From positions 32,001-96,000 of the IMG/VR virus record IMGVR_UViG_3300033233_000015: 64,000 nucleotides of DNA; one strand, given 5' to 3'. A model generated the notes under the pieces. It was not told the origin of the DNA. It made no database searches and worked only from the letters and a program-made list of their open reading frames with translations. A program made the translations under genes and the position numbers. Shown in pieces: positions 9,660 through 55,796 of this stretch. The DNA comes from a virus. The number at the start of each line of letters is the position of its first letter. Within the stretch, counting starts at the first letter, position 1.

Positions 9660-12270
9660 CTACCGCATCCTCCAAGGCGACGCGCTCGAGCGTCTTCGCG
9701 AACTGCCGTCCGACTCGTTCGACGCGATGCTCTGCGATCCGCCGGCCGGAATTTCGTTCATGAACAAAAAGTGGGATGGCGATAAGGGCGGACGCGATCA
9801 GTGGATCGCGTGGCTCGCCGACGTCATGCGCGAGGCGAGGCGATGTTTGAAGCCTGGCGCGTACGCGCTCGTGTGGGCGCTTCCCCGCACGTCGCACTGG
9901 ACCGCGATGGCGATCGAGAACGCGGGCTTCGAGGTGCGCGATGTCGTCACGCATGTCTTCGGGTGTCTGAGCGATGACACCGAAATACTGCTCGATTCAG
10001 GGTGGACCCGCTACCGTAATATCGACGAAGGTGATCTCGCACTTTGCTACGATGCGGAGCATGACGAGTTCCGATGGCAGCGCGTCGAGGAAGTCGTCTC
10101 CTACGCCTACGCGGATACCGCCTTCCGTATTCGCTCGGATCGTACAGACCAGCTCGTCTCCCGCGAGCACCGCTGCCTCGTTGAACGAGATGGAGGCTAC
10201 GCTTTCGCGCGAGCAGACTCACTGGAACGCGAAGCGCGTGTACCCGTTCTGGAAGACGTGCACGAACTGCTCGCAGCCCTTCCCGTGCCATACGAGGGAA
10301 CAGGCGGTTCGGAACGCATCGTGTGCGGGGTGTCACGGATCGCTCATCTCGAAGGCGAAAAAGGGTGTCTACCGAACGCCCGCAGCGACATGCCTGCATT
10401 GTCGCAAGACGTTCCGTCGTCATCGAGGTCAGCCGACATCGCGCGCGAAATACTGCACCAAAAAATGTTGGGGAGCTGCACGGTCAGCGGACCCGAAGTT
10501 CGCGGCGAAGATGCGGAAGATCGGGGCATTGGGTCGGTCGGGATGGACGGCCGCGAGCGCGGACTCGTATCGGGAGAAGATGAGCGGAGCGAAGAATCCG
10601 GCCTGGCGGGGCGGAGTCACTTTCAAGCGGAACAAGGGGAACTACATCGGGCCGAAGTACGTGAGATGTCCGAAGGTGTTCGCCAAGATGTCGCGCAAGG
10701 ACGGCTACGTGATGGAGCATCGACTAGTCGTCGCTCAGCAGATCGGTCGCTCGCTGACGCGCACGGAGTCAGTGCACCACGAAGACCACAACACGCGGAA
10801 CAACTCACCATCGAACCTTCTGCTCTTCGCGACGAACCGAGATCACAAGCTGTACGAGGCGCACGGTTCACCCGCACCGATCTGGCGACTGTAGAGCCCG
10901 TTCTGTACGAGGGCATCGTCTGGTGCGTTCGGGTGCCGACGGGGGCGTTCGTCGCGCGTCGTAACGGCAAGGCGTTCGTCACGGGTAATTCTGGTTTCCC
11001 GAAGTCGCTCGATCTGTCGAAAGCGATCGACGCGCACTTCGGCGCCGAGCGCGAGGTCGTCGGCACGCGAACGCTGACGGGCAACGCAGCGGTCTCGACG
11101 AAGGAGAAGGGCGGCACGTACGGTGTGCAAGTCGGCACCGCGCCGGCGAAAGAGGTCGATGTGACGACGGCGGCGACGCCAGAGGCCGCTGCGTACGACG
11201 GCTACGGCACGGCGCTGAAGCCCGCCTCCGAGCACTGGATCCTCGCGCGCAAGCCGCTCGAGGGGACGTACGCGGAGAACGCGTTGAAGTGGGGGACGGG
11301 AGGGATCGCGATCGATGCGTGCCGCATCGGATACGCCAGCGAGGGCGATCAAGCAGCAGCAGCGCAACGAGCGTGCCACGATCAGAACGCGGGTCGCACG
11401 GCCTACGGCGACTTCAACAACGGCGCAGCGTCGCTGCCTGGCTACTTCGAGAAGCAGGCGCTCGGCCGATGGCCCGCGAACCTCATGCTGTCGCACGCGG
11501 ACGGGTGCGAGCGGACCGGCTCGTCGACGTCGATACGATCCGTACCGCGCGGCGTCTCGGTGCGAAATAACAAGAACGCGATCTACGGCCCTGGCCTCGG
11601 CGGTCGGCCGGAAAAGGTCGAAGAGGTCGAAGAGGTCGAAGAGGTCGAAGAGGTCTTCTCGTGCGTCTCGGGATGCCCTGTCAAGCTCCTCGACGAACAG
11701 AGCGGCGATCGTCCCGGCATGTCCGGCGGCGGCGCGCACCACTCGGAGTACGAGGGCGGCATGTTCGGCGCGATCGACTCGACGTCGACGGCGCGCGCGG
11801 ACACGGGCGGCGCGTCGCGCTTCTTCTACGTCGCCAAGGCCAGCCGCTTCGAGCGCGAGCTCGGATGCGAACATCTTCCGAAGAAGTCGGCGGGCGAGAT
11901 GGTCGATCGCGAGGACGAGAGCGACGGTATGAAGAGCCCACGCGCTGGCGCGGGCCGCACGGGCGGAGCGCGCAACCATCACCCCACGATCAAGAGCGTC
12001 GCGCTCGCGACGTACCTGGCAAAGCTCATCAAGCCGCCGAAGTCCGCGAGGCTGCTCAATCCGTTTGCCGGATCGGGCACCGAGGGCATCGGCGCGATGC
12101 GCGCGGGCTTCGACGAGATCGTCTGCATCGAACTAGAGCCCGAGTACGTCGCCATCGCCGAAGCTCGCTTCGCGCGATGGTCGGAGATCCCCACGCACGT
12201 CAACCCGCAGGAGTCCAAACCCGCGAAGGTGGACGAGCGGCAGGCGTCGCTCTTCGGAGGTTCGCGATGA
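9652..12270 (+). CDS. N4-cytosine/N6-adenine DNA methyltransferase (beta class) containing an intein
   Basis: DPPAGISFM, GFPKS, ALKPASEHW, HPTIKS, NPFAGSGT. Confidence 0.85.
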   Translation: MSDYRILQGDALERLRELPSDSFDAMLCDPPAGISFMNKKWDGDKGGRDQWIAWLADVMREARRCLKPGAYALVWALPRTSHWTAMAIENAGFEVRDVVTHVFGCLSDDTEILLDSGWTRYRNIDEGDLALCYDAEHDEFRWQRVEEVVSYAYADTAFRIRSDRTDQLVSREHRCLVERDGGYAFARADSLEREARVPVLEDVHELLAALPVPYEGTGGSERIVCGVSRIAHLEGEKGCLPNARSDMPALSQDVPSSSRSADIAREILHQKMLGSCTVSGPEVRGEDAEDRGIGSVGMDGRERGLVSGEDERSEESGLAGRSHFQAEQGELHRAEVREMSEGVRQDVAQGRLRDGASTSRRSADRSLADAHGVSAPRRPQHAEQLTIEPSALRDEPRSQAVRGARFTRTDLATVEPVLYEGIVWCVRVPTGAFVARRNGKAFVTGNSGFPKSLDLSKAIDAHFGAEREVVGTRTLTGNAAVSTKEKGGTYGVQVGTAPAKEVDVTTAATPEAAAYDGYGTALKPASEHWILARKPLEGTYAENALKWGTGGIAIDACRIGYASEGDQAAAAQRACHDQNAGRTAYGDFNNGAASLPGYFEKQALGRWPANLMLSHADGCERTGSSTSIRSVPRGVSVRNNKNAIYGPGLGGRPEKVEEVEEVEEVEEVFSCVSGCPVKLLDEQSGDRPGMSGGGAHHSEYEGGMFGAIDSTSTARADTGGASRFFYVAKASRFERELGCEHLPKKSAGEMVDREDESDGMKSPRAGAGRTGGARNHHPTIKSVALATYLAKLIKPPKSARLLNPFAGSGTEGIGAMRAGFDEIVCIELEPEYVAIAEARFARWSEIPTHVNPQESKPAKVDERQASLFGGSR
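9964..10989 (+). mobile_element. intein (342 aa) in the DNA methylase
   Basis: FG|CLSDDTEIL N-junction; block B SREHRC; VWCVRVPTGAFVARRNGKAFVTGN|S C-junction; splicing restores HVFG-SGFPKS. Confidence 0.9.
10190..10894 (+). CDS. HNH endonuclease with zinc fingers, in the +1 frame inside the intein
   Basis: CTNC, CAGC, CLHC..YCTKKC, NPAWRGG, GYVMEHRLV, VHHEDHNTRNNSPSNL. Confidence 0.85.
   Translation: MEATLSREQTHWNAKRVYPFWKTCTNCSQPFPCHTREQAVRNASCAGCHGSLISKAKKGVYRTPAATCLHCRKTFRRHRGQPTSRAKYCTKKCWGAARSADPKFAAKMRKIGALGRSGWTAASADSYREKMSGAKNPAWRGGVTFKRNKGNYIGPKYVRCPKVFAKMSRKDGYVMEHRLVVAQQIGRSLTRTESVHHEDHNTRNNSPSNLLLFATNRDHKLYEAHGSPAPIWRL
11611..11655 (+). repeat. in-frame 9-nt tandem repeat (GAAGAGGTC x4 plus one variant)
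   Basis: encodes EKV-EEV-EEV-EEV-EEV within the methylase. Confidence 0.9.
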
Positions 12271-13358: not shown

Positions 13359-14036
13359 GTGAACAATCCGAACGCGGTCGTTCTTCTCTCGGGAGGCATG
13401 GACTCGGTGGCGGCGCTCTATTGGGCGCGGACGCGGTACGACCGCGTCTTCGCCGTGTCGTTCGACTATGGTCAGCCGAACCGCGACGCCGAACTGTACG
13501 TAGCGGGGACGTGCGCGAAGGGGCTCGACATCAAGTGGGATCGGCTCGTCCTGGCGGGGCTTCCTCGAGCGGGGCTCCTCGATCACATCGAGCCGCACAA
13601 CGACGCGAAACCGATCAACGCCGCGTTCGTGCCCGGCCGGAACCTCGTCTTCCTCACGCTGGCGGCGGGCCGTGCGACGTCTCTCTGCCCGAACGGCAAC
13701 ATCGATCTCGTCATCGGAGCGTGCGTCGACGACGCGCGCGGGTTCCCCGACTGCCGCGCGACGACGCTGGCGAAGCTCGGCGAGGCGCTGCGTGCGGGCA
13801 TGGCGAGGGAGATCCAAATCGTCTCGCCGTGGATCGATCGCACCAAGACGCAGATCCTCGACTCGCTCGACGGAGCTGCGCGTATCGCCGTCGCACGATC
13901 GTGGTCGTGCTACCGAGGCACGGGGCCGTGCGGCGAATGCTCGGCCTGCGTCGCACGCGCACGCGCGTTCGCCGCTGCGCATCTTCGCGATGAATCCTCG
14001 ATGCCCATCATGACGGGCGGGGACGGTGCGCGATGA
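13359..14036 (+). CDS. queC: 7-cyano-7-deazaguanine synthase
   Basis: LLSGGMDS, FDYGQ, VPGRN, FPDC, SWSCY, CGECSAC. Confidence 0.9.
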   Translation: MNNPNAVVLLSGGMDSVAALYWARTRYDRVFAVSFDYGQPNRDAELYVAGTCAKGLDIKWDRLVLAGLPRAGLLDHIEPHNDAKPINAAFVPGRNLVFLTLAAGRATSLCPNGNIDLVIGACVDDARGFPDCRATTLAKLGEALRAGMAREIQIVSPWIDRTKTQILDSLDGAARIAVARSWSCYRGTGPCGECSACVARARAFAAAHLRDESSMPIMTGGDGAR

Positions 14037-20818: not shown

Positions 20819-21275
20819 TGGGCGCCGTAGATATCTTCTCCGCGACGGAGCCGTGCGAGTATGAGGGCTCGCGCAAGGTGATCTCGCGCGACGGACACGC
20901 TTCACCGCTGCTCTGCGTCGCGCATGCGGAGGAGTGGTTCAAGAACGTGCCCGGCTGCACGCACATCGCGCGTCCGAGGCTCCTTCCGGGCGAGGGAGAA
21001 TCGCACCCCTGCCAAGCGAACTGGCCGTTCACGGGGGCTGTACCAGGATGAAGAAAGGATCGGATCATGACGCCTAGAGAATTGGGTGGAGCAATCACGC
21101 GCGCGGAGGACGTGTTCGTTTGGGTGGGGTACACCCGAGACAAGGGGGTGTTCATTCGCGTCCCGAAGCCGGCGGCGAGAGAGATTGTGGACGAGGCGAA
21201 AGCCGAAGAGGTGACGAACGTCGAGGCGCACGCCTCCGGCAACGAAGTCTTCATTGGCCATTCGCCGCCGTACTG

Positions 21276-22163
21276 ATGCTCTCCCTACCTTCCGAACTCG
21301 CAGGTCTTCCGCTCGTCGCGTCCGTGAGCGGAGGCAAGGATTCGACGGCGCTCATCCTCGCGCTGCTCGAGGCGGGGCTCGTGACGCGCTACGTCTTCGC
21401 CGACACGGGATGGGAAGCGCCAGAGACGTACACGTACCTCGACACGCTCCGCACGAAGCTCGGGATCGTGATCGACGTAGTGGGCGTGCCAGGAGGGATG
21501 CTCGCCATCGCGACGAAGAAGGCGGGCTTCCCTCAGCGCAAGGGGCGGTGGTGCACCGAGAAGCTCAAGATGATTCCGATCCGCGAATACCACCGCGCGA
21601 TCGGCGCCGACGTCGTCAACGTGGTCGGCGTCCGCGCGGAAGAGAGCGCGAAGCGGGCGGCGATGTCGGAACTCGAGGACGACGCCGAATGGGGCGGGTG
21701 GGTGTGGAGACCGCTGCTTCGATGGAGCGTCGCGGAGGTGCTGGCGATCCACCATCGACACGGCGTCCCCGTGAACCCGCTCTACAAGCGCGGTCACAAC
21801 CGCGTCGGCTGCTACCCGTGCATCAACGCCGACAAGGAAGAGATCCGCCTCGTCGCCGAACACTCGCCCGAGCGCATCGACGAGATTCGGGCGCACGAGC
21901 TGGCGCAGAGCACCGAGCGCGCGCGCCGCAACACGAGCGGCGAAGGAAACTTCAAGCATCTGACCTCGACGTACTTCAGTGCGCGTGAGTCGCTCGGACC
22001 GCGCGGCATCGACGAGGTCGTGGAGTGGTCGCGCACCGACCACGGCGGCAAGCAGCTGCCGCTCCTCGCTTCCGTTCCGAGCGGCGGATGTATGCGATGG
22101 GGTCTCTGCGAACCGCCGACGACGGAAGGAGAAGGAGAAGACGATGCAGCACAAGGAAATTGA
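21276..22163 (+). CDS. PAPS reductase family protein
   Basis: SVSGGKDS, DTGWE, RWCTEKLK, GVRAEES, RVGCYPC. Confidence 0.9.
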   Translation: MLSLPSELAGLPLVASVSGGKDSTALILALLEAGLVTRYVFADTGWEAPETYTYLDTLRTKLGIVIDVVGVPGGMLAIATKKAGFPQRKGRWCTEKLKMIPIREYHRAIGADVVNVVGVRAEESAKRAAMSELEDDAEWGGWVWRPLLRWSVAEVLAIHHRHGVPVNPLYKRGHNRVGCYPCINADKEEIRLVAEHSPERIDEIRAHELAQSTERARRNTSGEGNFKHLTSTYFSARESLGPRGIDEVVEWSRTDHGGKQLPLLASVPSGGCMRWGLCEPPTTEGEGEDDAAQGN

Positions 22164-33958: not shown

Positions 33959-34618
33959 ATGATCGAGAAGCCCGTACCTGGCGTCCTCGCGAGACCTCAC
34001 CCCGGCGGCAAACGCGGAGCGATGATCTCGCTCGACGAGACCGCGAAAGGCGCGTGGCGCGATCGGATGTCGCCGCGGCTTCGCGCGTGGGCTACGCAGC
34101 AGCTCGACAAGTGTGGCCGTCCCACGGGGAAACGCGCACGCGTGCAGTGCCTCCTCGACGCCTTCCGCAAGAAGGTGCCCTATCTGGCCGATCCGAAGTG
34201 GGGTGAGTTCATCGCGAGCTCCGACCAGCTTCTCTGCGTGGACGAAGACAAGAACCTCTGCTTCATCGGCGCCGACTGCGAAGAGCACGCTCGAGCGATG
34301 GCGGCCCTCTGTCTCTGCATCGGGATTGACGCGATGATCGTGGGCCAGTCGTCACGAGATCCCGCCGACGTCCCCACGCACGTCTACTTCGCGTTCAAAG
34401 ACGATCTCGATTCGTGGGTCCGAGGCGACTCGACGACGACGTATCCGGTGGGCAGGGTCGCTCCGTACCTTCGCGAGTGGTGGGTCGATCCGTCCGAGGG
34501 TGTCGCTGAGGCGGGGCTCGGCGACATCGTCGTGATGGGCGCCACGGATGGTTTGCAGGATGCACCTAAAAATGGTGCGGTCTACACGGGTCGATACGCG
34601 GGGCTGTTCTCGAAATGA
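33959..34618 (+). CDS. transglutaminase-like Cys-His-Asp enzyme
   Basis: GADCEEHA, THVYF, WVRGDST. Confidence 0.7.
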   Translation: MIEKPVPGVLARPHPGGKRGAMISLDETAKGAWRDRMSPRLRAWATQQLDKCGRPTGKRARVQCLLDAFRKKVPYLADPKWGEFIASSDQLLCVDEDKNLCFIGADCEEHARAMAALCLCIGIDAMIVGQSSRDPADVPTHVYFAFKDDLDSWVRGDSTTTYPVGRVAPYLREWWVDPSEGVAEAGLGDIVVMGATDGLQDAPKNGAVYTGRYAGLFSK

Positions 34619-35049
34619 GCCGTTCGCGGCGAAGAGTGAAAATTCTCGGTGACGACGTCGCTCTGTCGATTGTCGATCGTGAGCCGTTGGTGTTCCCTAA
34701 GGATCACGTACTCATCTTCGATCCGAGTGGGCGATCGATCGGGAAATGCTGCCTCGTCATCGGCCCCGCGCGCTTCACCAACGATCCGATTTCTAATTTT
34801 TCCAAATTCGATCGCGGTTGGTACGGCGACGACTACGAACGTCGATTGGCTTTCGTTGACGTTCCCGAAGATCACTGGCACTCTTTCGATCGCGTGGACG
34901 AGATCACCTACTTCCGATACGGAGAGCTCGAGGGAGATTTCACGCATCCCTTCCGCGAACCGCAGCAGCTCTTGAAGAGCAGGAAGTGGCACATGCTCGT
35001 CCTCTCGTCCGATTGCAGAATCACTCGTCGCGGGATCGAGGAACCGTGA
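34615..35049 (+). CDS. hypothetical protein
   Basis: coupled start. Confidence 0.6.
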   Translation: MSRSRRRVKILGDDVALSIVDREPLVFPKDHVLIFDPSGRSIGKCCLVIGPARFTNDPISNFSKFDRGWYGDDYERRLAFVDVPEDHWHSFDRVDEITYFRYGELEGDFTHPFREPQQLLKSRKWHMLVLSSDCRITRRGIEEP

Positions 35050-36468
35050 ATGGCGTCCTACGCGGATTGGCTCTCAGAGATGTCTCGACGGCGACCTCGC
35101 CGTCGTCGCGCTCGACGATCCGCCGCGCCCGTCGCCTCTTCCCGATCCTCTACATCCCGAACGTCGCCGAAGCGTCCTGCGAAAAAAAAGAAGACCAAGC
35201 AAACCGCCGGCTCCGGCGGACGTAAAACGAAACAAGGAGTGACCATGGCCCGTCGCCGTCGCCGAAAGCACGCCAAGAGCCCCGTCGCAGAGACCCGTCG
35301 TCGTCGCCGGCGAGCCGCAGCCCCGAAACGTCGTCGCCGTCGGGCGCGAGAAGCGGCGGTGGCGCAAGCTCCGCGTCGGCGTCGTCGCGCGCGTCGTCGC
35401 GCGGCACGGTCGTGGTTCGGCAACGCCCCCGGACATCGTCGAGCCGCGAAGAAGGGCTGGCGTAAGAAACGCAGCAGCGGTCGTCGGCGTCGAAGCCGCG
35501 AGGTGAGCGAGGCTCCGCGCCGCCGCCGCCCGAGCCGTCGTCGGGGTCGTCACTACCGAGAGGCCGCGCACGAGGCGCGTCGCGGCGGGTACTCCCGACG
35601 TCGGCGCCACGCGCGCAACAACCCGGCGATGAACGGAGGCGAGCTCGCCATCGCGTTCATCGCGGGCGGTCTCGGCTTCACGCTCGCCGACTTCGCCGAT
35701 CGGTACTTCGCCACGTACGATCCGTCGGCGACGGGCGAACTGCCGAAGGACAAGTTCACGGGCGGCAACGGCACGATGGCGAACACGCTCAACATCGCCG
35801 CGCCGCCAGGCTTCCTTCGAATCGGCGTCGGCGTCGCGCTGACGGCTCTTCCGGGGGTCGGCGCGTACCTCGTCAAGAACTCGATGGCGAAGGCCGCGCT
35901 CCACGGCATGATGATCGGCGCGGGCATCAAGCTCTTCTCGACGCTCTTCAATGCGTTCGTGATGGGCAACCTGCTCAAGCCGGGACCGCAGGACGATCCG
36001 AAGAAGTCGCTCGGAGCGCGCCTCTACCCGGCCGAGATCACCGCGGCGCAGAACATGTCGAACAGCCCCGCGACGATGGCCTCGCCGTTCAACCCCGGCC
36101 TCGCGGCTCGTCCTCAGCAACGCGACGTCGGACCCTTCGCACTCGCGCAGGATCCGAGCGCGTTCGCTCCCGCACCGAGCGCGCCGCCCGTGAACGTCGC
36201 GCCGAGCCCTCCGCCCGTGAACGTGGACAGACCGCCATCGAACGGCGGCGGTCCGCCCGTGAACGTGGACAGACCGCCATCGAACGGCGGCGGTCCGCCC
36301 GTCGTCATGAGCCCGCCCATGGGTCCGCCGCCCTCGAGCGGACCGCCCGCGCGATCGGGCGGATCCTGCCCCGCCTGCAAAGGCGAGAGCGGGGCGTGCG
36401 GCTGCCTCGGATCGCAACCTCAAGCGCAGACGAACTACGCCTACCTCGGCGTCATCAACGAATCGTGA
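35050..36468 (+). CDS. Arg-rich (protamine-like) membrane protein, putative DNA-condensing core protein; alternative start 35245
   Basis: poly-Arg N-terminus, three hydrophobic segments, Pro-rich tail; AAGGAG RBS before ATG 35245. Confidence 0.7.
   Translation: MASYADWLSEMSRRRPRRRRARRSAAPVASSRSSTSRTSPKRPAKKKKTKQTAGSGGRKTKQGVTMARRRRRKHAKSPVAETRRRRRRAAAPKRRRRRAREAAVAQAPRRRRRARRRAARSWFGNAPGHRRAAKKGWRKKRSSGRRRRSREVSEAPRRRRPSRRRGRHYREAAHEARRGGYSRRRRHARNNPAMNGGELAIAFIAGGLGFTLADFADRYFATYDPSATGELPKDKFTGGNGTMANTLNIAAPPGFLRIGVGVALTALPGVGAYLVKNSMAKAALHGMMIGAGIKLFSTLFNAFVMGNLLKPGPQDDPKKSLGARLYPAEITAAQNMSNSPATMASPFNPGLAARPQQRDVGPFALAQDPSAFAPAPSAPPVNVAPSPPPVNVDRPPSNGGGPPVNVDRPPSNGGGPPVVMSPPMGPPPSSGPPARSGGSCPACKGESGACGCLGSQPQAQTNYAYLGVINES
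36211..36302 (+). repeat. perfect 42-nt tandem duplication (PPVNVDRPPSNGGG x2)
   Basis: 36211-36252 is identical to 36253-36294. Confidence 0.95.
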
Positions 36469-36524: not shown

Positions 36525-37775
36525 ATGGAAGCTCAAGTGAAGAAGTCGATGACGAAAGCTCGGTTCGGCCAGGACCGCGATCGGGTGAAGCGCGTTCCCT
36601 TCGGTCTCGGCGACGCGCCAAGCTCCGACGCGCTCAACAAGACGCTCCGTTGCTCCTTCGGCAACGTGCCCGTCATCGAGGAGGTCGTTTGGACGATTCC
36701 TCTCCCGCTCTCCGAAGCGGAAGCGCAGAGCACGTTCGGCGACATCATCAACGTGCTCACCTCGCAGGCGAACGTGCCGGGTGTCGCGTCGATCGACTCG
36801 ACGTTCCTGCTCAACGGCATCCTGCAGACGGACCTCTACACGCAGGGCGTCGGCGTGCACGTCTTCTGCGAGCCGATGCAGCTCGCGACGATCGGCAACG
36901 CTTGGACGTCGCCGCCCACGGCCGGCGCCGTTCCGCCGCCGTCCCCCGACGTCTTCACGCTGAACGATGTCGCCGGCGGCGCGCTCGGTCTCGCGCAAGG
37001 CACCACGATGGTGCCCGCCGCCTTCGATTGGGGCGGCGAGGTGTGGCGCGCGGGCTGGAACTTCATCAACGCGTACCAGTTCCAGTGGAAGACGAGCCAG
37101 CGCGAGCTCGTCTTGAACGAGCTGGCGGCCGACGTCTCGTACTTCGGCAGCTTCGCGGACGCGGAGGCGGCGGGCACCAGCGAGTTCCCGATCGCGGAGC
37201 TCGTCGCGCGCACGAACGCCGTCTACCGCTCGAAGGCGTCGGGGTTCACCTTCCTCCCCGTGAACTTCCGCCGCGTCGGAAGCGTCACGGTGGCGGCGGC
37301 CAACGTCGGCATCTTCCACCCGACGCGCGACTTCGACCTCGCGCCCGTCACCTGGGGCGGTCTCCGCTGGCAGGGGTACGGCTGCAAGGGTCAGATGTAC
37401 CGGATGATCGAGAACCCGTGCTTCCTCGAGCGCGCGATTCCGATCGGCATGCAGTTCATCGTGCAGGATCCGGTGCACCAGGCCGCGATGCTCGAAGCGC
37501 TCACGATGGACAACTCGCTGCTCGGGACGAACATCAGCCCCGACACGAACATCAGCTGCGCGAACACGACGACGGGCGCGAACGTCATGCTCGAGCAGAC
37601 GCTCGACTCGCCGCCCGTGAACACGCCGCAGCAGGTGACGCTCTGCCGTCAGGTCTTCAAGGGCGGCATCCTCAAGATCGGCATCAAGCTCAAGGGGTGG
37701 GAGTTCCCCGCTCCGTGGCGTCTCTGGTGCCAGCAGAACGCGCCGCAGCTCGTCTCCTGCCCCGCGCAGAGCTGA
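36525..37775 (+). CDS. candidate major capsid / major structural protein
   Basis: 416 aa, beta-rich, strongly biased codons, follows the Arg-rich protein and is followed by a strong hairpin; no HK97 motifs recognised. Confidence 0.45.
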   Translation: MEAQVKKSMTKARFGQDRDRVKRVPFGLGDAPSSDALNKTLRCSFGNVPVIEEVVWTIPLPLSEAEAQSTFGDIINVLTSQANVPGVASIDSTFLLNGILQTDLYTQGVGVHVFCEPMQLATIGNAWTSPPTAGAVPPPSPDVFTLNDVAGGALGLAQGTTMVPAAFDWGGEVWRAGWNFINAYQFQWKTSQRELVLNELAADVSYFGSFADAEAAGTSEFPIAELVARTNAVYRSKASGFTFLPVNFRRVGSVTVAAANVGIFHPTRDFDLAPVTWGGLRWQGYGCKGQMYRMIENPCFLERAIPIGMQFIVQDPVHQAAMLEALTMDNSLLGTNISPDTNISCANTTTGANVMLEQTLDSPPVNTPQQVTLCRQVFKGGILKIGIKLKGWEFPAPWRLWCQQNAPQLVSCPAQS

Positions 37776-37796: not shown

Positions 37797-37838
37797 GCGA
37801 CGGGCGGCGCGGATTTCTGCGCCGCCCGTTGCCGTTTC
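37797..37838 (+). terminator. GC-rich hairpin (terminator/attenuator or mRNA stabiliser)
   Basis: ACGGGCGGCGC (37800-37810) / GCGCCGCCCGT (37819-37829), short T tract. Confidence 0.65.
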
Positions 37839-37849
37839 AGGAGAGCCCG

Positions 37850-38536
37850 ATGCTGCCGCGTGACCTCCAGATAAAGAATCTCGCTTGGATCTCCCCCAAG
37901 ATCGCCTACGGTCTCGTGGCGCAGGTTCCCCGTGTGCCGTTCGTCGGTCCCATCACGACGAACCCCGGCGTTCCGTCGCCCGTCGTACCGATTCAGTTCA
38001 CCGCGAACTGGCTCGCTCCGCCCGCGCTGCCTCCGGGCAATCCGCCGAACAACATCGGCATCAACCCGATCATCCAAGGCACGCTTCAGAACAACGTGAC
38101 GCAGGACACGCTGATCGAGCGCATCGTGTACTCGCTCTGGCAACCGAACGCGTTCTCGACGCCGCCGTCTCCGTTCCAGACGCTATACCTGTCGCAGCTC
38201 AAGAGCTCCACGGGCGTCGATGTCCTGCTCGATGTCTACGGAAGCCCGAAGTACCGCGTGTGCGACTTCTTGCCGCTCGAGAACCTCGCTGACGTGCTCG
38301 CCGTCACGTGGCCCAACGGATGGCCGCTGCGCAAGCAGGAGAACGTCAAAGTGCAGGCCGTGCTCACCAGACCGCAGCCCGGAACGGTCGAAGCCCCCGT
38401 CGGCATCCCGTACTTCGTGAACATGGCGCTCGTCGGATGGCAGTTCGTCGGGAAGGAGATCGACGACATGTCCGACGACGAGGCGCGTCGGCGTCTCAAA
38501 GCGATGGGGATCGAAGTCCCTGAGGTGCCGCGATGA
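37850..38536 (+). CDS. putative structural protein, paralogue A
   Basis: AGGAG RBS; aligns end to end with 38533..39156. Confidence 0.7.
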   Translation: MLPRDLQIKNLAWISPKIAYGLVAQVPRVPFVGPITTNPGVPSPVVPIQFTANWLAPPALPPGNPPNNIGINPIIQGTLQNNVTQDTLIERIVYSLWQPNAFSTPPSPFQTLYLSQLKSSTGVDVLLDVYGSPKYRVCDFLPLENLADVLAVTWPNGWPLRKQENVKVQAVLTRPQPGTVEAPVGIPYFVNMALVGWQFVGKEIDDMSDDEARRRLKAMGIEVPEVPR

Positions 38537-39156
38537 TCGACCGCGACTACAACGTGAAGAACTTGGCGCTCTACGCGCCGCGCGTCGCGTGGGCGATGAT
38601 CGCGGGCATTCCGCGCGTCGCGTTCGCGGTGGACGTGCCGATTCAGTTCTCGTCGGCGACCGTCAACGCTCCCCCCGTCGTCGGGAGCTTTCAGAACTCG
38701 CTCACGCAGGACACCGTCATCGAACGTGTCTCGTTCTCGCTCTTCCAGCAGAACACGTTTCCGGGCTCTCCCTTCCAGACGCTCTACTTCGCGATGGCGA
38801 AGGCGATCAGTGGCGTCGGCGTGCAGATGAGCGTCTACGGGGGGCCGAAGTACAACGTGAACGACACGTTCACGGCGCTAGAGAACATGGCCGACGTGCT
38901 CGCGATCACGTGGCCGAGCGGATGGCCGCTCTACAAGGGCAGCAACGTCAAGGTGACGGCGGCGCTCCTCCAGACGCCGTTCTCGACGCCGTACGACGTG
39001 AACCTCACGTTCCTTGGCTGGCAGTTTCTCGACGCCGAGCTCGACGCGATGAGCGACTCGGAAGCTCGTCGTCGTTTGCGGGCGCTCGGACTCGAGTCAC
39101 CCGATCTCGCATCGCTCATCGGATCAGGGGGCGCGACGGCGCCACACAAGGAGTGA
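38533..39156 (+). CDS. putative structural protein, paralogue B
   Basis: shares KNLA, TQDT.IER, EN.ADVLA.TWP.GWPL, GWQF, MSD.EARRRL. Confidence 0.7.
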   Translation: MIDRDYNVKNLALYAPRVAWAMIAGIPRVAFAVDVPIQFSSATVNAPPVVGSFQNSLTQDTVIERVSFSLFQQNTFPGSPFQTLYFAMAKAISGVGVQMSVYGGPKYNVNDTFTALENMADVLAITWPSGWPLYKGSNVKVTAALLQTPFSTPYDVNLTFLGWQFLDAELDAMSDSEARRRLRALGLESPDLASLIGSGGATAPHKE

Positions 39157-39655: not shown

Positions 39656-40534
39656 ATGAACAACGTCATTCGCCTTCAAGACAAGCGCGGCGGTGTGGGG
39701 ACGAACCTCCCCGGCGCGGCGGTGTGTCGAGGGCGATACGAAATCGTGTCCGCGTCGCTCGATCCCGATCTCGCGTTCATCGGAAGCGATCCGTACAACA
39801 CGAGCGACTTCACGGGCGTCATCGTTCCTGCGGTGCCGTCGTCCTTTCTTGGCACCGGTCAGCGCTATCTCTTCATGCTCGCGCGCGCGCAGTTCAGTTC
39901 GGGACAAGAGGGGGTTCATCTAGTTGGTGTCCGCCTCTACGCTGATCTCGTCGCGCGCGTTCCGCAAGAGGACGCTCCCACGCTCGTCTTTCACAAGGAG
40001 ATCACGCACCCGATGTTCCATCCACCCGATGGCAACATCTCGTTCCATGTGATGGTCCTCGACAAGACGTGGCGCGACAGAAGGAACGCGTTCAACGCAG
40101 ACACGAGGACGTTCCAAGACAGCTTCTCTCCATCGCTGCTCTTTCAGACGCCCGAAGCTGCGGGCTACACGCCGCCGAACGGCGGACGAGCCTGGGGAAC
40201 TCCGCTCGACGCCTCACTCGGCAACATCCACGAGCTCCGATGGCCGTGGCGAGACAGCAAGATCGAGCACACCCTGCGCGTGCCCATCCCCATCCCGAGC
40301 GACATCGCCATCTTCGCGTCGGTCAGGCAGAACGATCCCGCTATGAACCCGAGCGCGGCCGGGTTGTCCGCGCAGCAGTTCGCGGCGCTCGATCCTGAGG
40401 AGCAGTTCCTCACTTCGTTCTTTACGGTCGCGCAGTACGGGCGCATCTCCGCATCGCTCGTCTTCGAGGGGGATTCGTTTTTGTACGGCAGCGAGGGATG
40501 CAAGTCCGAGGACTCGCGGGAGAAGTGCCGATGA
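39656..40534 (+). CDS. hypothetical (putative virion) protein
   Basis: GAGG RBS, long ORF within the operon. Confidence 0.65.
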   Translation: MNNVIRLQDKRGGVGTNLPGAAVCRGRYEIVSASLDPDLAFIGSDPYNTSDFTGVIVPAVPSSFLGTGQRYLFMLARAQFSSGQEGVHLVGVRLYADLVARVPQEDAPTLVFHKEITHPMFHPPDGNISFHVMVLDKTWRDRRNAFNADTRTFQDSFSPSLLFQTPEAAGYTPPNGGRAWGTPLDASLGNIHELRWPWRDSKIEHTLRVPIPIPSDIAIFASVRQNDPAMNPSAAGLSAQQFAALDPEEQFLTSFFTVAQYGRISASLVFEGDSFLYGSEGCKSEDSREKCR

Positions 40535-41163
40535 GGTGCCCGTACGTGCAGAACATGGTGACGGGGCAGGTCGAGAGCGAACCTGCTGGACCCAATGATG
40601 CGGGCATCGAGCGTTCGCTCCGATGTTTCGCCGAGTACATCAACAGCATGGGGCTCGGAGACGGAGGAAACATGATTTCGTACGGTGGACGCCCCGTAGC
40701 GGGCTTCGGTGTGCTCGACAACCTCGGCCTCTCGGGTGCCGACATCTACAACGCTCTGTCCAGCGATCAGCGGACGTGGCTCGCCTCGGCGATGCAGACG
40801 TTCGAAGGAGCTCGCAGGGACGCTGGCGCGTCGGCGTGCCCGGAGTGGCCGCAGACGTTTCAGACGGTCGCGGACTTCCAGGCAGCCGTCGCGTGCACGC
40901 AGGCGTGGATCAACGCCGGCAACCCCGGCCTTCTTCGCACCGACGGCGTCATGGACGAATCCACGCTCTGCGCGATCCAGTTCGAGGCGTACAAGATGCC
41001 CCCCTACGCGCAGAACAGATTCCCCGATCCGTCGGGCAAGTTCTGCAAGTCGATGACGACGACGGAGAAGAAGTCGAACACCGTCTACTACGTCGCTGGC
41101 GGCGTCGCGGCGGCGCTGGCCGTCGGCGCGGCGATCGTCTACTCGAGAAAGCGAGCTGCGTGA
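40531..41163 (+). CDS. tail-anchored protein with GGRPVAGFG motif and PG-binding-like motif; possible internal start 40672
   Basis: GGAGG before ATG 40672; LRTDGVMDESTL; C-terminal TM + RKR. Confidence 0.65.
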   Translation: MRCPYVQNMVTGQVESEPAGPNDAGIERSLRCFAEYINSMGLGDGGNMISYGGRPVAGFGVLDNLGLSGADIYNALSSDQRTWLASAMQTFEGARRDAGASACPEWPQTFQTVADFQAAVACTQAWINAGNPGLLRTDGVMDESTLCAIQFEAYKMPPYAQNRFPDPSGKFCKSMTTTEKKSNTVYYVAGGVAAALAVGAAIVYSRKRAA

Positions 41164-42314
41164 TGCTCGACTACAAGGTCCGTCATGGCGACTCGCCCGC
41201 CGCCATCGCGCGCCGCTACGGCGTGTCGGTGACCTCGCTCGTCGGGGCGAACCCGCAGAAGCACACGACCGTCGTCGCGGGTCAGCAGACGTGGCGCTCC
41301 TTGCACATCGGAGAGGTCGTGCGCGTTCCGTCGGCTCGAGTCGGGCTCGCGGGACAGACTTCGGTGGACGTCGGTGCGTCACCCATCGGATCGAAGACGC
41401 CGACGATCACCGCGTTCATTACGAACTCGGATCAAGCAACCATCGGCGGCGACGTGCAGTTCTTCGTGGACGGGAACTTCGTTGGCGCCGCTTCGGTCAT
41501 CCCTCAAGGCGGCGGCAGTTCGACCGCAAGCGTGACCCTCGCCGACGAGCTCTCGCCCGGTAACCACACGTTCGATGCCGCGTACTCGGGAGATCCTTCG
41601 AACGACGCGGGCCGAGGATCGGTGACGTTCTCGGTCGCAGGCGGCGGTGGCGGAGGCGGCGGAGGTCGCTACTCGAGCACGATCGTCGCTGCCGCGCAGG
41701 CGCTCGACGCGCAACTCGTCGCGAAAGGCTGCTGCGGCTGCGGCGATGCGGCGTCTGCCCTCAGCGCAGTGGTCATGGCCTTCAAGAGATCGATCCTCAC
41801 GAACCCCTCGCAGTGGGGCGTCCCTGGCATCGGAAACGCTGCCACCGTGACGGGCAGCACGATCGACGTCTCGAACGATCAGTGTCAGCACGCGTTCGGC
41901 AACGGCACGATCAACGATCTGCGTGCCGTGCTCGGATCGGGCATGCGGTACTCAGGCGGTCCGTGCGCGACGTGGAACGGAGCAGGTAACTGCCCGTGCA
42001 CGAACACGGGCTCGAACTGCGGACAGCAGCCGCCTTCGCAGACGTTCCCGTGTCCGGCAGGAACCGTCAAAGAGGGTCAGCAGGTCGCGAACATCCTCAC
42101 CGACTGCGGCGGCCCGAAGCAGCCTCCGCGCGGCTGCTCGACGAACAACCCCTGCCCGTCAGGTCAGCAGTGCCAAAGCGGCCAGTGCATCACGCCTCCG
42201 AGCTCGGGCGGAGGCGGCGGAAGCGCGGGCGCGCTTCTCGCTGGCGTCCTGCTCGTTGGCGGCGGCATCGCAGCCACCACGATCGCCATGAAGAGAAAGA
42301 AGCGTCACCCGTGA
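41163..42314 (+). CDS. LysM + Ig-like + Cys-rich tail-anchored protein
   Basis: YKVRHGDSPAAIARRYG; GDVQFFVDG..GNHTFDAAYSGD; C-terminal TM + KRKKR. Confidence 0.8.
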   Translation: MLDYKVRHGDSPAAIARRYGVSVTSLVGANPQKHTTVVAGQQTWRSLHIGEVVRVPSARVGLAGQTSVDVGASPIGSKTPTITAFITNSDQATIGGDVQFFVDGNFVGAASVIPQGGGSSTASVTLADELSPGNHTFDAAYSGDPSNDAGRGSVTFSVAGGGGGGGGGRYSSTIVAAAQALDAQLVAKGCCGCGDAASALSAVVMAFKRSILTNPSQWGVPGIGNAATVTGSTIDVSNDQCQHAFGNGTINDLRAVLGSGMRYSGGPCATWNGAGNCPCTNTGSNCGQQPPSQTFPCPAGTVKEGQQVANILTDCGGPKQPPRGCSTNNPCPSGQQCQSGQCITPPSSGGGGGSAGALLAGVLLVGGGIAATTIAMKRKKRHP

Positions 42315-49137: not shown

Positions 49138-49990
49138 CAAGCGAGAGAAGAAGATCCGCTTCACCATCTACCTCCATCGCAACCGAGTCACCGGCAAGCC
49201 GTACGTCGGGCAGACGAAGAAGACGATGCAGAGACGATGGAGCGACCACGTAAGCGACGCCAAAAAGAATCGCGGTTGCCGTCTTCTCGGCGCCGCCATT
49301 CGCAAGTACGGATCCGACGCATTCGATCACGAAGTCCTCGACGTCGTGACCTCGCAGAGCGGAGCTGACATCGCTGAGGCGGTGTGGATCAAGCAGCGGC
49401 GGGCGCTCACTCCGGACGGGTACAACCTGGACTCAGGTCGCTACCAGGGCGCAGAGAGATCGTTTTCGCATAGCGAAGAGACGAAGCGGCTGATGAGCGA
49501 GAAGGCGAAGGCGCGCGAGGTGCGGATGACGCCTGAAGAGAGAAGCGCGCGAAGGCTCGGGACGTCCACGCAGGAAGATCGAAACGAAGTCGCGCGAAAT
49601 AGATGGGCGTCGTACACACCCGAGAAGCGGGCAGACATTGCGAAGAGGGTGAGCGAATCTCTGTCTGCTTCGGAGAAGAACACTGCTGCGATTCGGGCTC
49701 GATGGGCGAAGACGACGCCAGAGCAGCGGAGCGACATCGCGCGCAAAGTTCATGAAGCGCAGACACCTGAGCAGCGAAGCGAACGGCAGCGCAAATCGTG
49801 GAACTCGATACCGATCGATCGACGCATCGAGATGATCGCGACCCTCGCAGCAGCAAGGCGAAAACCTCGTGGCCCGAACGGAAGGAAGATCGGGTGCTCA
49901 AGGTGCGGAGCCGACGTGGAGGTATCATCGGGATCTTGGTGTAAAAACTGTCGTCGCGAATACAGCAGGAATTGTCGCCATGGCACTTGA
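49124..49990 (+). CDS. GIY-YIG homing endonuclease with NUMOD3-like and helical repeats
   Basis: TIYLHRN..KPYVGQT..RRWSDH; HSEETKRLMSEK; TPEQRS repeats. Confidence 0.85.
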   Translation: MLWPDKREKKIRFTIYLHRNRVTGKPYVGQTKKTMQRRWSDHVSDAKKNRGCRLLGAAIRKYGSDAFDHEVLDVVTSQSGADIAEAVWIKQRRALTPDGYNLDSGRYQGAERSFSHSEETKRLMSEKAKAREVRMTPEERSARRLGTSTQEDRNEVARNRWASYTPEKRADIAKRVSESLSASEKNTAAIRARWAKTTPEQRSDIARKVHEAQTPEQRSERQRKSWNSIPIDRRIEMIATLAAARRKPRGPNGRKIGCSRCGADVEVSSGSWCKNCRREYSRNCRHGT

Positions 49991-50663
49991 TTGGCCCGCA
50001 TTCGGCGATGCGCTCTGGAAGGTCTACGACCAGACGGGCATTCGTCCCGAGTGGCAGATCCCCGTGATGTCGCTCGAGACGGGCGGCACGTTCGATCCGG
50101 CGATCTGCAATCCATCGAATTGTTGCGGACTTAACCAGTTCTGCGGCTCCACGTACACGCACTACGTCCACGTCCCCATCAGCGAGTACCGCACGTGGCT
50201 GGCGAGTCAGCAGCTCGCCGGTCCGGTGCTCGCGTACTGGAAGGACGCGCTCAACTTCGGCAAGATCCGCTCGAGCGCCCGCCTCATGGTCGCGCAGCTC
50301 GGTCAAGGGCTCCTCCGAACCCCCGCGAGCCTCGAGCGCGTCGTCTTCCGATCGCCTAGCATCGAGTACAAGAGCAACTCGGGCTTCGACACGCAGAAGA
50401 AAGGGACCATCACCGAGCAGGACATCGCGAACTCGATGGCGCGGCAGGTGCCGCGCGCTTCGGTGAAGGACGCCATCGCGAAGGCGTACGCGATGCGTCC
50501 TGGCGAAGTGGTGCGCGATCCCGTGTACGGCGAAGACTACGGAGGAGGCGGCGTCACACCCCCCGTGCGTCGCGCCGCGAGCTCGACGTCGTGGATCGCT
50601 CCCGTGCTCGTCGTCGGGACGCTTCTTGGCGGCGGCGCGGCCCTCGCGTACGTTTGGAAATAG
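49980..50663 (+). CDS. lysozyme/lytic transglycosylase-like protein, tail-anchored
   Basis: VMSLETGGTFDP..CGLNQF; C-terminal TM. Confidence 0.7.
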   Translation: MALDWPAFGDALWKVYDQTGIRPEWQIPVMSLETGGTFDPAICNPSNCCGLNQFCGSTYTHYVHVPISEYRTWLASQQLAGPVLAYWKDALNFGKIRSSARLMVAQLGQGLLRTPASLERVVFRSPSIEYKSNSGFDTQKKGTITEQDIANSMARQVPRASVKDAIAKAYAMRPGEVVRDPVYGEDYGGGGVTPPVRRAASSTSWIAPVLVVGTLLGGGAALAYVWK

Positions 50664-53603: not shown

Positions 53604-55796
53604 GTGCTCGACAATCTACTCGGCGGAATAGGACTCGAAGAAGTCGGCCAACCGCCGACGACGCTTCGATCGCAAAGACCCGTAGCGCCGTCGAGCGGTG
53701 AGGACTTCGTAGGATCTCTCCCGCCGCTTGAGGAGCAGTCGACACCGACGCGCGTGTGGAAATCGCGCGCGCAGCTGCCGGCAAATCGTGACGAAGACTT
53801 CGTCTCCACGACTGTCGTTGCTCTCGACGAGGATCCCGCACTGGCCCGATCCAGGGCTCGAGCGATCGTCTCGATCGTCACAAGAGGAGAAGACTTCGCA
53901 GGATCGCTTCCGCTAGAGGAAGATCCCTCTCGAGTCACGCAGCGCCGTCGACAACCGGTGATCGCTTTCGCTCGAGAGGAGGAGTTCGGGCTTCCGCACC
54001 CCGTCGATGAGTCGGCGCTCATCGCGCGCGCGCGCCCTCGTTCGCCAGCCCCGATCACTTCTCGTGGAGAGGACTTCGCAGGCAGCCTCCCGCTCGAGGA
54101 GATCGGCACGCTCGCGGCAGTTCGGCGTCGATCGGCATCGATCGCGGTATCGCGTGACGAGGAGTTCGGCGCGACGCATCCATCGGAAGACTCTCCACTG
54201 CTCGCGCGGTTGGCCCGCCGAGCGCTGCGATGGGTGCTTGGTCAGAGCGAAGACTTCGCGGGCAGTTTGCCCCTGGAGGAGCTCGCCCCGCCTGTTCAGA
54301 TCACGGCTCGCAAGCGATCGATCGTCTGGACGGTCGGCGAAGACTTCGCGGGAAGCCTGCCGCTCGAAGAGGACGCAGCGAGATCGCTGATCACGCCGCG
54401 CAAGCGCTGGATCAGCTGGACGGTCGGTGAAGATTTCGCCGGATCGTTGCCTCTCGAAGAGTTCTCACCGATCGTTCGCGGAGGCTCTCCGCGTCGCCAC
54501 GCGACGACGATCGTCGCAGAGGATTTCGCGGGATCTCTTCCGCTAGAAGAGCTCAGTTCGTTCTCATCGACACCGACGACGAAGCGCACGCACTCGCCGA
54601 CCTTCGGGCACGAAGACTTCGCGGGATCGCTTCCGTTCGAGGAATCGTCTTCCGTCGTTCGTCGGGAGACGTTGCGTCGATTTTCGCTACCGACCTTCGG
54701 GGAGGACTTCGCCGGCGCGTTGCCGACAGAAGATCCCGTACCTGGGGCGGTAGTTCGAGCTCGACAACGGATTCCGCCGATCTCTACGGACGAAGAGTTT
54801 GGGGCTTCGCACCCAATAGAGGATCAGCCATCGAGCGCGATTGTTCTGTCGCTCGCGCGCGCAAGGGGCCGTGCACCTATCGTCGAGGATTTCGCAGGAT
54901 CGCTTCCGCTAGAGGAAGAGACCACGAGCGCGCGAGTGATCGCCAGGGTGAGGATTTCGACCGTAGAGTCGATCGGCGAAGAGTTCGGCTCCGCTCATCC
55001 GATCGAAGAAGAGGCCGCGCCGCCCATCTCCCGCCGCATCCGTCGGTGGTTCACGATCACGGTCGAGGAGCATTTCGCTCCCGCGCCCCCACCACCGCCT
55101 CCGCCACCGCCTCCGCCCCCGACACCATCTCAACTGAGCGGCGGAGGTACGGGATGGTTTGGGCCGCGCGAGCTCCCTCCGATTCCGTACTGCCCTCCCG
55201 GATGGCTGCCGAAGCCCATCAACGAGTACGAGTACGAGTGCGAGGCTGATCTCGCGATCCTGCACGAACAAGGGGCCATCGTCCGCGCGTTCGCGGACGG
55301 CATCGTCGAATCGTTCGTCGATGACAAGGGCCGCACTACGATGGTGCTCACGGACGACGGAGGCACCCGCTACTGGTACGCCGACATCGGGGAGAAGATC
55401 GCCAAAGATGGCGCGCGCGTGAAGAGCGGGCAGATCATCGCTCGCGTCAGGCCGAACGCGGCAACCGCGCCAGCGATCACTCCGCGCACTGCATCGCGCG
55501 CGCTGCCTTCTGCCACGTCGATCTCGGAGCCTGAACCAAAGCCGAAGCCCGTTCAGATCGTGTTCGTAGAGCCGCCGCATCCGCCGATTTCAAACTTCGT
55601 GATTCGGATGCCATCGACACCGCCGCCTCTACCGATTCCGCCACCAGCGCCGCCTAGACCGAACGAGTGGGGCGTGCAGTCGCCGACGCTGCGCCGCGGT
55701 CAAGAGACCGAGATCGTTCGGGCGGTCGTTTACATCGGAGGGGTGGCCGCTCTTCTCTACGCGCTCACGCTGCTCGATCCATCGAGACGGAAGTAA
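53604..55796 (+). CDS. repeat protein (~15 x 30 aa) + degenerate M23-like domain + C-terminal TM
   Basis: xEDFAGSLPLEE / xEEFGxxHPxEE repeats; VRAFADGIV..YWYAD..GARVKSGQIIARV. Confidence 0.75.
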   Translation: MLDNLLGGIGLEEVGQPPTTLRSQRPVAPSSGEDFVGSLPPLEEQSTPTRVWKSRAQLPANRDEDFVSTTVVALDEDPALARSRARAIVSIVTRGEDFAGSLPLEEDPSRVTQRRRQPVIAFAREEEFGLPHPVDESALIARARPRSPAPITSRGEDFAGSLPLEEIGTLAAVRRRSASIAVSRDEEFGATHPSEDSPLLARLARRALRWVLGQSEDFAGSLPLEELAPPVQITARKRSIVWTVGEDFAGSLPLEEDAARSLITPRKRWISWTVGEDFAGSLPLEEFSPIVRGGSPRRHATTIVAEDFAGSLPLEELSSFSSTPTTKRTHSPTFGHEDFAGSLPFEESSSVVRRETLRRFSLPTFGEDFAGALPTEDPVPGAVVRARQRIPPISTDEEFGASHPIEDQPSSAIVLSLARARGRAPIVEDFAGSLPLEEETTSARVIARVRISTVESIGEEFGSAHPIEEEAAPPISRRIRRWFTITVEEHFAPAPPPPPPPPPPPPTPSQLSGGGTGWFGPRELPPIPYCPPGWLPKPINEYEYECEADLAILHEQGAIVRAFADGIVESFVDDKGRTTMVLTDDGGTRYWYADIGEKIAKDGARVKSGQIIARVRPNAATAPAITPRTASRALPSATSISEPEPKPKPVQIVFVEPPHPPISNFVIRMPSTPPPLPIPPPAPPRPNEWGVQSPTLRRGQETEIVRAVVYIGGVAALLYALTLLDPSRRK
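53697..55076 (+). repeat. protein-level repeat array, ~90-nt period
   Basis: conserved 12-aa motif with synonymous DNA variation and unique 18-19-aa spacers. Confidence 0.9.

Follow-up and report, generated by a model that had tools for sequence, protein, structure and literature searches.

In the 64,000-nt window analysed here (positions 32,001 to 96,000 of IMG/VR virus record IMGVR_UViG_3300033233_000015, a 110,081-bp record rated 100% complete by CheckV), a plus-strand open reading frame (ORF) at 35050–36468 encodes a protein of 472 aa in which a strongly basic, Arg-rich arm is joined to a hydrophobic module of three helices and then to a Pro-rich linker, a Cys cluster and a C-terminal motif. 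The gene is real, and the fusion of arm and anchor is universal in its family and under purifying selection. We propose that the product is a structural or morphogenetic protein, a membrane-anchored polycation that would bind and condense the viral DNA at a virus membrane, and we give this reading about an even chance of being correct. The window has a G+C content of ~63% and carries nearly all of its genes on the plus strand. A first-pass annotation of the ORF, made from the letters alone, had described an arm, hydrophobic segments, a Pro-rich duplication, a Cys cluster and two possible starts, and this description proved accurate.

The first 195 residues contain 64 Arg (33%) and 15 Lys, with a net charge of +71 and a pI of ~12; Arg content is 3–10% in 21 other genes of the window. 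The polybasic arm proper (aa 12–193, 35083–35628) consists of runs of three to six Arg/Lys, several with Pro before them, and the basic part stops at R-N-N-P (aa 189–192), followed by A-M-N-G-G-E-L, which upholds the ~190-aa Arg-rich stretch reported at first pass. Homologous loci were compared from IMG/VR (25), contigs of metagenome-assembled genomes (MAGs; two) and metagenomes (52), and 56 of them had sufficient upstream sequence. In all 56 the stretch upstream of the hydrophobic module is 29–46% Arg+Lys. Searching 1.84 billion cluster representatives with a profile of the module yielded 318 hits (130 at E up to 1e-10), and all 81 hits with a long N-terminus were basic there (25–47% Arg+Lys, median 36%), so the arm is not absent from homologues, an outcome that the first-pass annotation had allowed for. 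Members of the family fall into a near clade, which holds most of the relatives of the window's protein, and a distant clade, in some members of which Lys replaces Arg almost entirely.

The same annotation had also considered that the Arg-rich part might be untranslated, the true start lying at M-N-G-G-E-L (ATG 35629). Database gene calls lend this some colour: a search with the C-terminal part returned 34 cluster representatives, the long calls with the arm in frame and the short ones (260–350 aa), about half of all calls, beginning at this junction Met. The G+C content at third codon positions (GC3) is also lower in the arm (0.65) than in the rest of the gene (0.86), but this is because the Arg codons of the arm lean to CGT and CGA, and with Arg codons set aside the value is 0.77. 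Against an untranslated arm, every relative keeps the frame open, and wherever a locus was checked frame by frame, stops interrupt both of the other sense frames and most of the antisense ones. Arm indels among close relatives are multiples of three throughout (by pair, four of 3 nt; 3, 6, 3, 3 and 3 nt; nine indels; and one of 117 nt), and the ratio of non-synonymous to synonymous substitution rates (dN/dS) in the arm, 0.02–0.67, is below 1 and close to that of the hydrophobic module. The arm also contains conserved peptide motifs: W-F-G-N-A-P-G-H-R-R-A-A-K-K-G-W-R-K-K-R (35413–35472) aligns with W-x-G-N-x-x-G-H-x-x-A-A-K-K-G-W of the relatives (aa 122–137 here). Moreover, ATG 35629 lacks a Shine–Dalgarno site, and such a site precedes the corresponding codon in only 9 of 59 relatives. 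An untranslated arm is thus ruled out for practical purposes. Within 35050–35634, CGT and CGA account for 39 of the 64 Arg codons, compared with 136 of 419 in 21 other genes, the genome otherwise favouring CGC; this skew might reflect avoidance of GC-rich repeats or of secondary structure, or tRNA supply.

Both of the starts listed at first pass, 35050 and 35245, are conserved and each has a Shine–Dalgarno-like site, and nested in-frame products are therefore to be expected, probably a long form of 472 aa and a short form of 407 aa. ATG 35050 abuts the TGA of the preceding gene and has GAGGAA 6 nt upstream; this site and the following CCGTGA, which contains that stop, occupy 35038–35049, and CGTGA(C)-ATG is kept in relatives. 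It is taken as a real start because the first 11 residues, M-A-S-Y-A-D-W-L-S-E-M (35050–35082), align with the conserved N-terminus of the family (consensus M-G-L-Y-D-D-R-L-A-D-L, alignment A1), a motif present in most complete loci. Most near relatives carry an additional ~70-aa domain between this peptide and the arm, with a mean column identity of 78%, which is missing from the window's protein. The second start, ATG 35245 (Met66), lies 5 nt downstream of AGGAG (site and codon at 35235–35247), and its counterpart in relatives is the Met at which the basic arm begins. All 42 unique loci that bear the extra domain have the homologous Met, and a Shine–Dalgarno-like tetramer precedes it in 31 of them, against 11% for all in-frame Met codons. 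The purine-rich codons that form the internal site (e.g. CGA-GAG-GAA) are unusual in these GC-rich genomes, which suggests that selection acts at the nucleotide level. Although 50 of 59 relatives conserve the junction Met (ATG 35629), it was rejected as a further internal start for want of the Shine–Dalgarno site noted above.

In relatives (L001–L075; A6), the ~60 nt upstream of the first ATG hold TTGAC, a gap of ~17 nt, TGAAAnCCTT and then CGTGAC-ATG, without a Shine–Dalgarno site. This element looks like a promoter that would give a leaderless or very-short-leader mRNA of the long form, and no upstream ORF whose stop might explain the conserved CGTGAC was consistent across relatives. Only CCGTGA-ATG is kept in the window (remnant at 35040–35049), since a 144-aa gene fills the space.

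Downstream of the arm lie three hydrophobic segments of 26, 20 and 31 residues: helix 1 (aa 196–221, 35635–35712), helix 2 (aa 255–274, 35812–35871) and helix 3 (aa 278–308, 35881–35973). AlphaFold2, run on an alignment of 58 sequences, modelled the module as three long helices with a mean predicted local distance difference test score (pLDDT) of 75, and 10-residue block means reached 94–97 across most of the helices' length (94–97 for helix 1, 97 for helix 2). The helices are Gly/Ala-rich and nearly devoid of charge, which argues for their burial in a bilayer or in an oligomer, and membrane insertion of the module is likely. The most conserved part of the module is the loop between helices 1 and 2 (T-Y-D-P ... 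F-T-x-G-x-G-T-x-A-N-T-L-N-I-A, 35713–35811), which has invariant columns in alignments A1, A3 and A4. When the modelled module was searched with Foldseek, neither the PDB nor BFVD yielded a hit at E up to 0.001; the top rows were membrane proteins, at non-significant E-values of at least 0.85. Neither Pfam nor PHROGs has a family matching the target or its long relatives at E up to 0.1, and the only hit of the family profile among PDB sequences (E 0.13) fell in the Pro-rich region and is not meaningful.

In the mechanism that we propose, the hydrophobic module would be seated in a virus-associated membrane and the arm (~180 aa, net +71) would neutralize and condense the 110-kb double-stranded (ds) DNA at that membrane, while the C-terminal part, with the Cys cluster, would lie across the bilayer from the arm. 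Two nested forms would be made, a long one from ATG 35050 that carries the conserved N-terminal peptide and a short one from ATG 35245. By our own arithmetic a 110-kb genome has ~220,000 phosphate charges, of which about a thousand copies of the protein would neutralize about a third.

The position of the gene fits a role in the particle. It is followed in all loci compared by the gene for a capsid candidate of 416 aa (36525–37775, plus strand; GC3 0.92). Upstream is a gene for a transglutaminase-like, papain-fold Cys enzyme (33959–34618, plus strand; Pfam Transglut_core, E 1.1e-6), a candidate maturation protease that is found upstream of the target in all IMG/VR loci covering that region. 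In the IMG/VR loci that span the block the order is kept as transglutaminase-like enzyme, target, capsid candidate, beta-sandwich protein and a 292-aa gene (39656–40534 here), and most of these loci also show a LysM-like match downstream of the last. Six far-clade loci have the same order although their capsid candidates are only 44–46% identical, and the synteny with the capsid gene that the first-pass annotation had put forward as a check is therefore kept across the lineage. Clusters homologous to the capsid candidate number at least 387; all are hypothetical or nameless, none has a Pfam domain, and their contigs reach 159 kb. A PDB search with the profile of the capsid candidate (E up to 10) came back empty, and the capsid candidates have no Pfam or PHROG match. 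For the second shell candidate, the Atlas model is beta-sandwich-like, with template modelling scores of 0.6–0.7 to unnamed viral proteins.

Other genes of the structural block point the same way. Between 23.5 and 56 kb (23500–55796), 13 of 36 ORFs have strongly hydrophobic segments, seven of which are C-terminal tail anchors, including those of a LysM/Ig-like protein (40623–42314), a hub-like lysozyme or peptidase (49869–50663) and an M23 peptidase with 30-aa repeats (53604–55796). This proportion of hydrophobic ORFs, with anchors on proteins that bind or degrade the cell wall, fits a membrane-containing virion. Searches of the 110,081-bp record for Phage_portal, Phage_capsid (HK97), TerL_ATPase (E up to 1) and Terminase_6N (E up to 0.1) gave no match, and no hallmark family of tailed phages was detected in the ~45 ORFs scanned, few families having been searched genome-wide. 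FtsK_SpoIIIE, the sole packaging-ATPase family of the FtsK/HerA type that was searched, also had no match in the record, and a strict Walker-A scan found one site, in the primase–polymerase gene. The rest of the genome is phage-like, with helicases, a primase–polymerase, RNA ligase, exonuclease, AAA_24, QueC, ParB, methylases and an integrase.

Several observations count against a membrane-anchored condenser of this kind. A check for transmembrane helices bore out three long, low-charge helices in the AlphaFold2 model and left their hydropathy borderline: with the Kyte–Doolittle scale, a 19-residue window and a cut-off of 1.6, the maxima were 1.52 (helix 1), 1.54 (helix 2) and 1.52 (helix 3), and the neighbouring tail anchors reach 1.8–2.5. 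In relatives helix 1 rises to 1.84 and helix 2 to 1.74; helix 3 is the least hydrophobic (1.05–1.47), and one relative lacks any peak of 1.0 or more. AlphaFold2 gave an unusable model of the capsid candidate (22-sequence alignment, pLDDT 34), and its nearest family-named ESM clusters, of a jelly-roll-type capsid, are below threshold at 0.85–0.88 and provide a lead only. The nearest ESM clusters of the second shell candidate are unnamed proteins labelled Uroviricota, and two features lie downstream, a PHROG hit of baseplate-hub-like type and the M23-peptidase repeat protein of 730 aa, so that the virus may also be a highly divergent tailed phage. Topology raises a further difficulty. Under the positive-inside rule a strongly basic arm is expected in the cytoplasm, and in assembly of the PRD1 type the cytoplasmic face of the membrane ends up facing the capsid and not the DNA. 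By this analogy the +71 arm should stay cytoplasmic and so face the shell, and a tether would require either another mode of membrane biogenesis or condensation on the cytoplasmic face before enclosure. Finally, the conserved arm–anchor junction, here Asn-Pro plus Met, could from its sequence be a cleavage site, and cleavage there would abolish a permanent tether.

The last point leads to the possibility that the protein is a polyprotein precursor, cut at the arm–anchor junction and perhaps between basic blocks, by the transglutaminase-like enzyme or by autocleavage at Asn-Pro, which would free untethered protamine-like peptides. We regard this as doubtful. In its favour, a papain-fold enzyme is encoded upstream wherever that region is covered, and the adenovirus proteins pVII and pre-Mu are cut by adenain. 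Autocleavage at Asn-Pro is established chemistry, as in FlhB/YscU (N|PTH) and reovirus mu1 (N42|P43). The junction, N-N-P-A-M in the window (35617–35631), is conserved in its Asn-Pro and Met (N-P-(A)-M): it reads H-A-L-S-N-P-M in the window's subclade, M-[RH]-A-S-x-G-G-G-M in other relatives and E-N-P-L-S-G-G-E-L in 51 of 54 far-clade proteins. In the arms of the distant clade (P0092–P0177) Asn-Pro occurs 177 times against 16 expected, an 11-fold enrichment, and 58% of all Asn precede Pro, mostly as E-N-P immediately before a basic run or the first hydrophobic helix. Pro stands directly before 52% of the basic runs in near relatives (A-A-P-R4-7). However, Asn followed by Pro is also the classic N-cap/N1 pair of helices, and that role alone would account for its position ahead of basic helices and helix 1. 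The near clade shows little enrichment (6 observed against 2.8 expected), and the window's arm has a single Asn-Pro, at the junction. The pattern could, then, represent cleavage sites or helix N-caps followed by Pro.

Another possibility is that the protein acts in the infected cell, where from the host inner membrane it would hold viral DNA for replication, segregation or encapsidation, much as phi29 p16.7 organizes phage DNA at the membrane. The positive-inside rule would place the arm in the cytoplasm with the replicating DNA, and the genome carries ParB and replication genes. The ~70-aa domain of the relatives is compatible with DNA binding: 16 of 30 members matched Pfam Ish1, at best with E 0.0015 and 18 bits, below the gathering score of 26.6, and a profile of the domain found nothing significant in the PDB, so that a DNA-binding role of the helix-extension-helix type (Ish1/SAP/LEM-like) is a lead only. 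We nevertheless consider such a function unlikely. The gene lies in the morphogenetic block immediately before the highly conserved capsid candidate with its GC3 of 0.92, away from the replication genes; the promoter-like unit of the relatives starts at the target and runs into the capsid candidate; and the charge and length of the arm are far above what site-specific or anchoring DNA binders need.

An ejection or pilot protein, packaged with the DNA, would use the same parts differently, its helices entering the host envelope and its arm escorting the DNA, as might be imagined from phiX174 H and J and the ejection proteins of T7 and P22. An arm of DNA-binding type joined to moderately hydrophobic helices, which may be soluble or buried before insertion, would suit that task, and muralytic proteins of the entry type (CHAP, LysM, M23, hub-like) are encoded nearby. 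No homology to known ejection proteins was detected in Pfam, PHROGs, PDB sequences or by Foldseek, no ejection protein known to us is polyarginine, and the long, variable Pro/Gln/Ala-rich C-terminal region is without counterpart among them; on balance this role is improbable. Less probable still is a scaffolding-type assembly factor that is removed once the shell has been assembled. Here the conserved order of protease, target and capsid mirrors the protease, scaffold and capsid order of tailed phages, and the conserved internal Shine–Dalgarno site and ATG for nested products recall lambda C/Nu3. Yet the scaffolds that we know of are helical proteins of acidic or neutral character and lack hydrophobic helices of a membrane-like kind, the +71 arm argues for contact with nucleic acid, and no tailed-phage hallmark gene was found among the families searched.

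Beyond the proposed membrane-anchored condenser, we raise with much reserve a wider and itself doubtful idea, that the protein may be the signature nucleoprotein or matrix component of a widespread, so far undescribed high-level lineage of bacterial viruses (contigs of 55–160 kb). Its members would have a jelly-roll-type shell over a membrane and no recognizable packaging motor, and would enclose the genome by condensation on the anchored polyarginine arm, regulated by nested isoforms and perhaps by Asn-Pro or protease processing. Outside such a lineage, assembly by condensation is known among viruses of eukaryotes and some viruses of archaea.

In adenoviruses and baculoviruses, Arg-rich core proteins condense the DNA, and the target would work in a similar way. 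The target shares with these protamine-like proteins (adenovirus pVII/Mu, baculovirus P6.9) an extreme Arg content and charge, but it has no sequence or profile homology to them, and at 472 aa (relatives 474–1209 aa) its size is outside their small soluble class of <15–20 kDa. The target also differs from these proteins by its fusion to a membrane-type module. Like the target, adenovirus pVII and pre-Mu (pX; adenovirus core proteins are reviewed in PMC7998265) are Arg-rich polycations of a dsDNA virus, believed to condense the genome within an icosahedral particle, and a papain-type Cys enzyme that could process them is encoded nearby. Unlike it, the adenovirus core proteins are small, soluble and unanchored, have no sequence similarity to it, and belong to a virus with an animal host and no internal membrane. 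The 37-aa J protein of phiX174, an ssDNA virus, binds DNA through a basic part, and its hydrophobic end fastens the genome to the particle interior; J is much shorter than the target, attaches to the capsid protein instead of a membrane, and has no homology to it. In phages of the PRD1/PM2 type, small-helix membrane proteins are encoded in the structural block beside membrane-anchored muralytic enzymes, as at this locus. We know of no such membrane protein with a polycationic arm, and the PRD1/PM2 type has a double jelly-roll capsid protein and packages its DNA with an FtsK/HerA-type ATPase; the FtsK_SpoIIIE search and Pfam scans detected neither in this virus.

Among condensing proteins of larger size, ascovirus P64 (64 kDa, pI 12.2) has a basic domain shown experimentally to condense the genomic DNA of a dsDNA virus of 100–200 kb, and like the target it exceeds the <15 kDa rule for viral condensing proteins (PMC6163548). 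No homology between the two was detected, P64 belongs to a virus of insects, and the portion of the source drawn on here mentions no hydrophobic membrane module for it (PMC6163548). The nearest architectural analogue among viruses of prokaryotes is the plan of the Portogloboviridae, in which a complex of dsDNA and a virus-encoded protein lies inside a membrane under an icosahedral shell with two shell proteins; Sulfolobus polyhedral virus 1 has a single jelly-roll shell, a layer of lipid and a core of nucleoprotein made up of VP1 (PMC8459092). That virus differs in being archaeal, in its 20-kb genome and in its VP1, which makes up a filament together with the DNA and for which no polyarginine–membrane fusion is described (PMC8459092). 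Its shell is a jelly-roll, whereas here that fold is only a candidate.

The joining of a polycation to a membrane anchor has not been described for phages. No account of a polyarginine-anchor protein or of its virus lineage was found in the literature, and none of 50,697 records of cultured phages was matched in tblastn searches that took the module and the capsid candidate as queries. The best explanation is that the window represents a hitherto undescribed lineage of bacterial viruses, with contigs of up to ~160 kb. The prevailing view is that phages use a motor to package naked DNA under pressure; condensation of the genome by polycations that the virus itself encodes is a hallmark of DNA viruses of eukaryotes and of a few viruses of archaea. 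If the target is a component of the virion, it would point to another way in which bacterial viruses can encapsidate their genomes. Its sequence also serves as a marker by which the whole lineage can be found. Soils, sediments and wetlands commonly harbour this lineage, with at least 387 capsid-candidate clusters and 318 cluster representatives of the target. The two MAG contigs that bear the gene were binned as Polyangiaceae and Binatia; these bins are a weak pointer to the host group and suggest where a culturable host might be sought.

The region downstream of the three helices is less uniform. It begins with conserved short helices containing A-R-L-Y-P-A-E (36010–36057; invariant R324, L325, Y326, P327 and E329; helices 133–137 and 139–148 of the model) and the invariant motif D-V-G-P-F-A-L (36124–36144; alignment A1), and becomes variable in length and composition, ORFs of complete relatives ranging from 474 to 1209 aa. 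Tandem Repeats Finder located the perfect 42-nt tandem duplication of the Pro-rich linker at 36210–36302 (2.2 copies, 100% matches), and the Cys cluster C-P-A-C-K-G-E-S-G-A-C-G-C (CxxC...CxC) lies at aa 440–452 (36367–36405), both as the first-pass annotation had described them. A protein on an 89,961-bp contig (P0001) is identical over the last 279 residues save for one missing 14-aa copy of the repeat, and the duplication is therefore recent or polymorphic. Only the C-G-C of the Cys cluster is conserved in the near clade (C450 and C452 invariant), and far-clade proteins have CxxC motifs. C-termini in the family close with a conserved motif of the type C-G-C ... F-L-G-F, here Y-A-Y-L-G-V-I-N-E-S (36436–36465; family consensus N-P-F-L-G-F-[VI]-G-D, alignments A1 and A3).

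The aromatic-Leu-Gly motif at the C-terminus of the target is similar to one in the capsid candidate, where a conserved P-F-G-L-G comes after an N-terminal basic leader of ~26 aa; these shared motifs might be docking or processing signals. At the start of the capsid candidate (36525–36620) there is no Shine–Dalgarno site, the ATG being preceded by GAAAGAAAGACGACC. The beta-sandwich shell candidates at 37829–38536 and 38533–39156 are tandem paralogues, present as a single copy in all relatives examined. Both copies end in M-S-D-x-E-A-R-R-R-L-[KR]-A-[ML]-G-[IL]-E, a helix-extension-helix-like peptide, at which the first copy has a weak Pfam LEM match (E 0.09).

Immediately upstream of the target, the 144-aa gene mentioned above (34615–35049, plus strand) was identified by ORF calling, and its TGA abuts the target ATG. 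Homologues occupy the same position in four of six distant-clade loci (L083–L086, 26–31% identity) and in none of the near-clade loci, where the target has the extra ~70-aa N-terminal domain instead. The gene layout of the window is thus of the far-clade type, and the sequence of its module is that of the near clade.

Elsewhere, a UvrD/AAA_30-type helicase is split by an intein with an HNH endonuclease (L027:1590–3899, minus strand; genome 21590–23902), and an 872-aa ORF at 9652–12270 of the window was read at first pass as a methylase with an intein. QueC and a PAPS-reductase-like gene (13359–14036 and 21120–22163) occur along with several DNA methylases, a gene content which suggests that the viral DNA is modified, with a 7-deazaguanine or similar type of modification.

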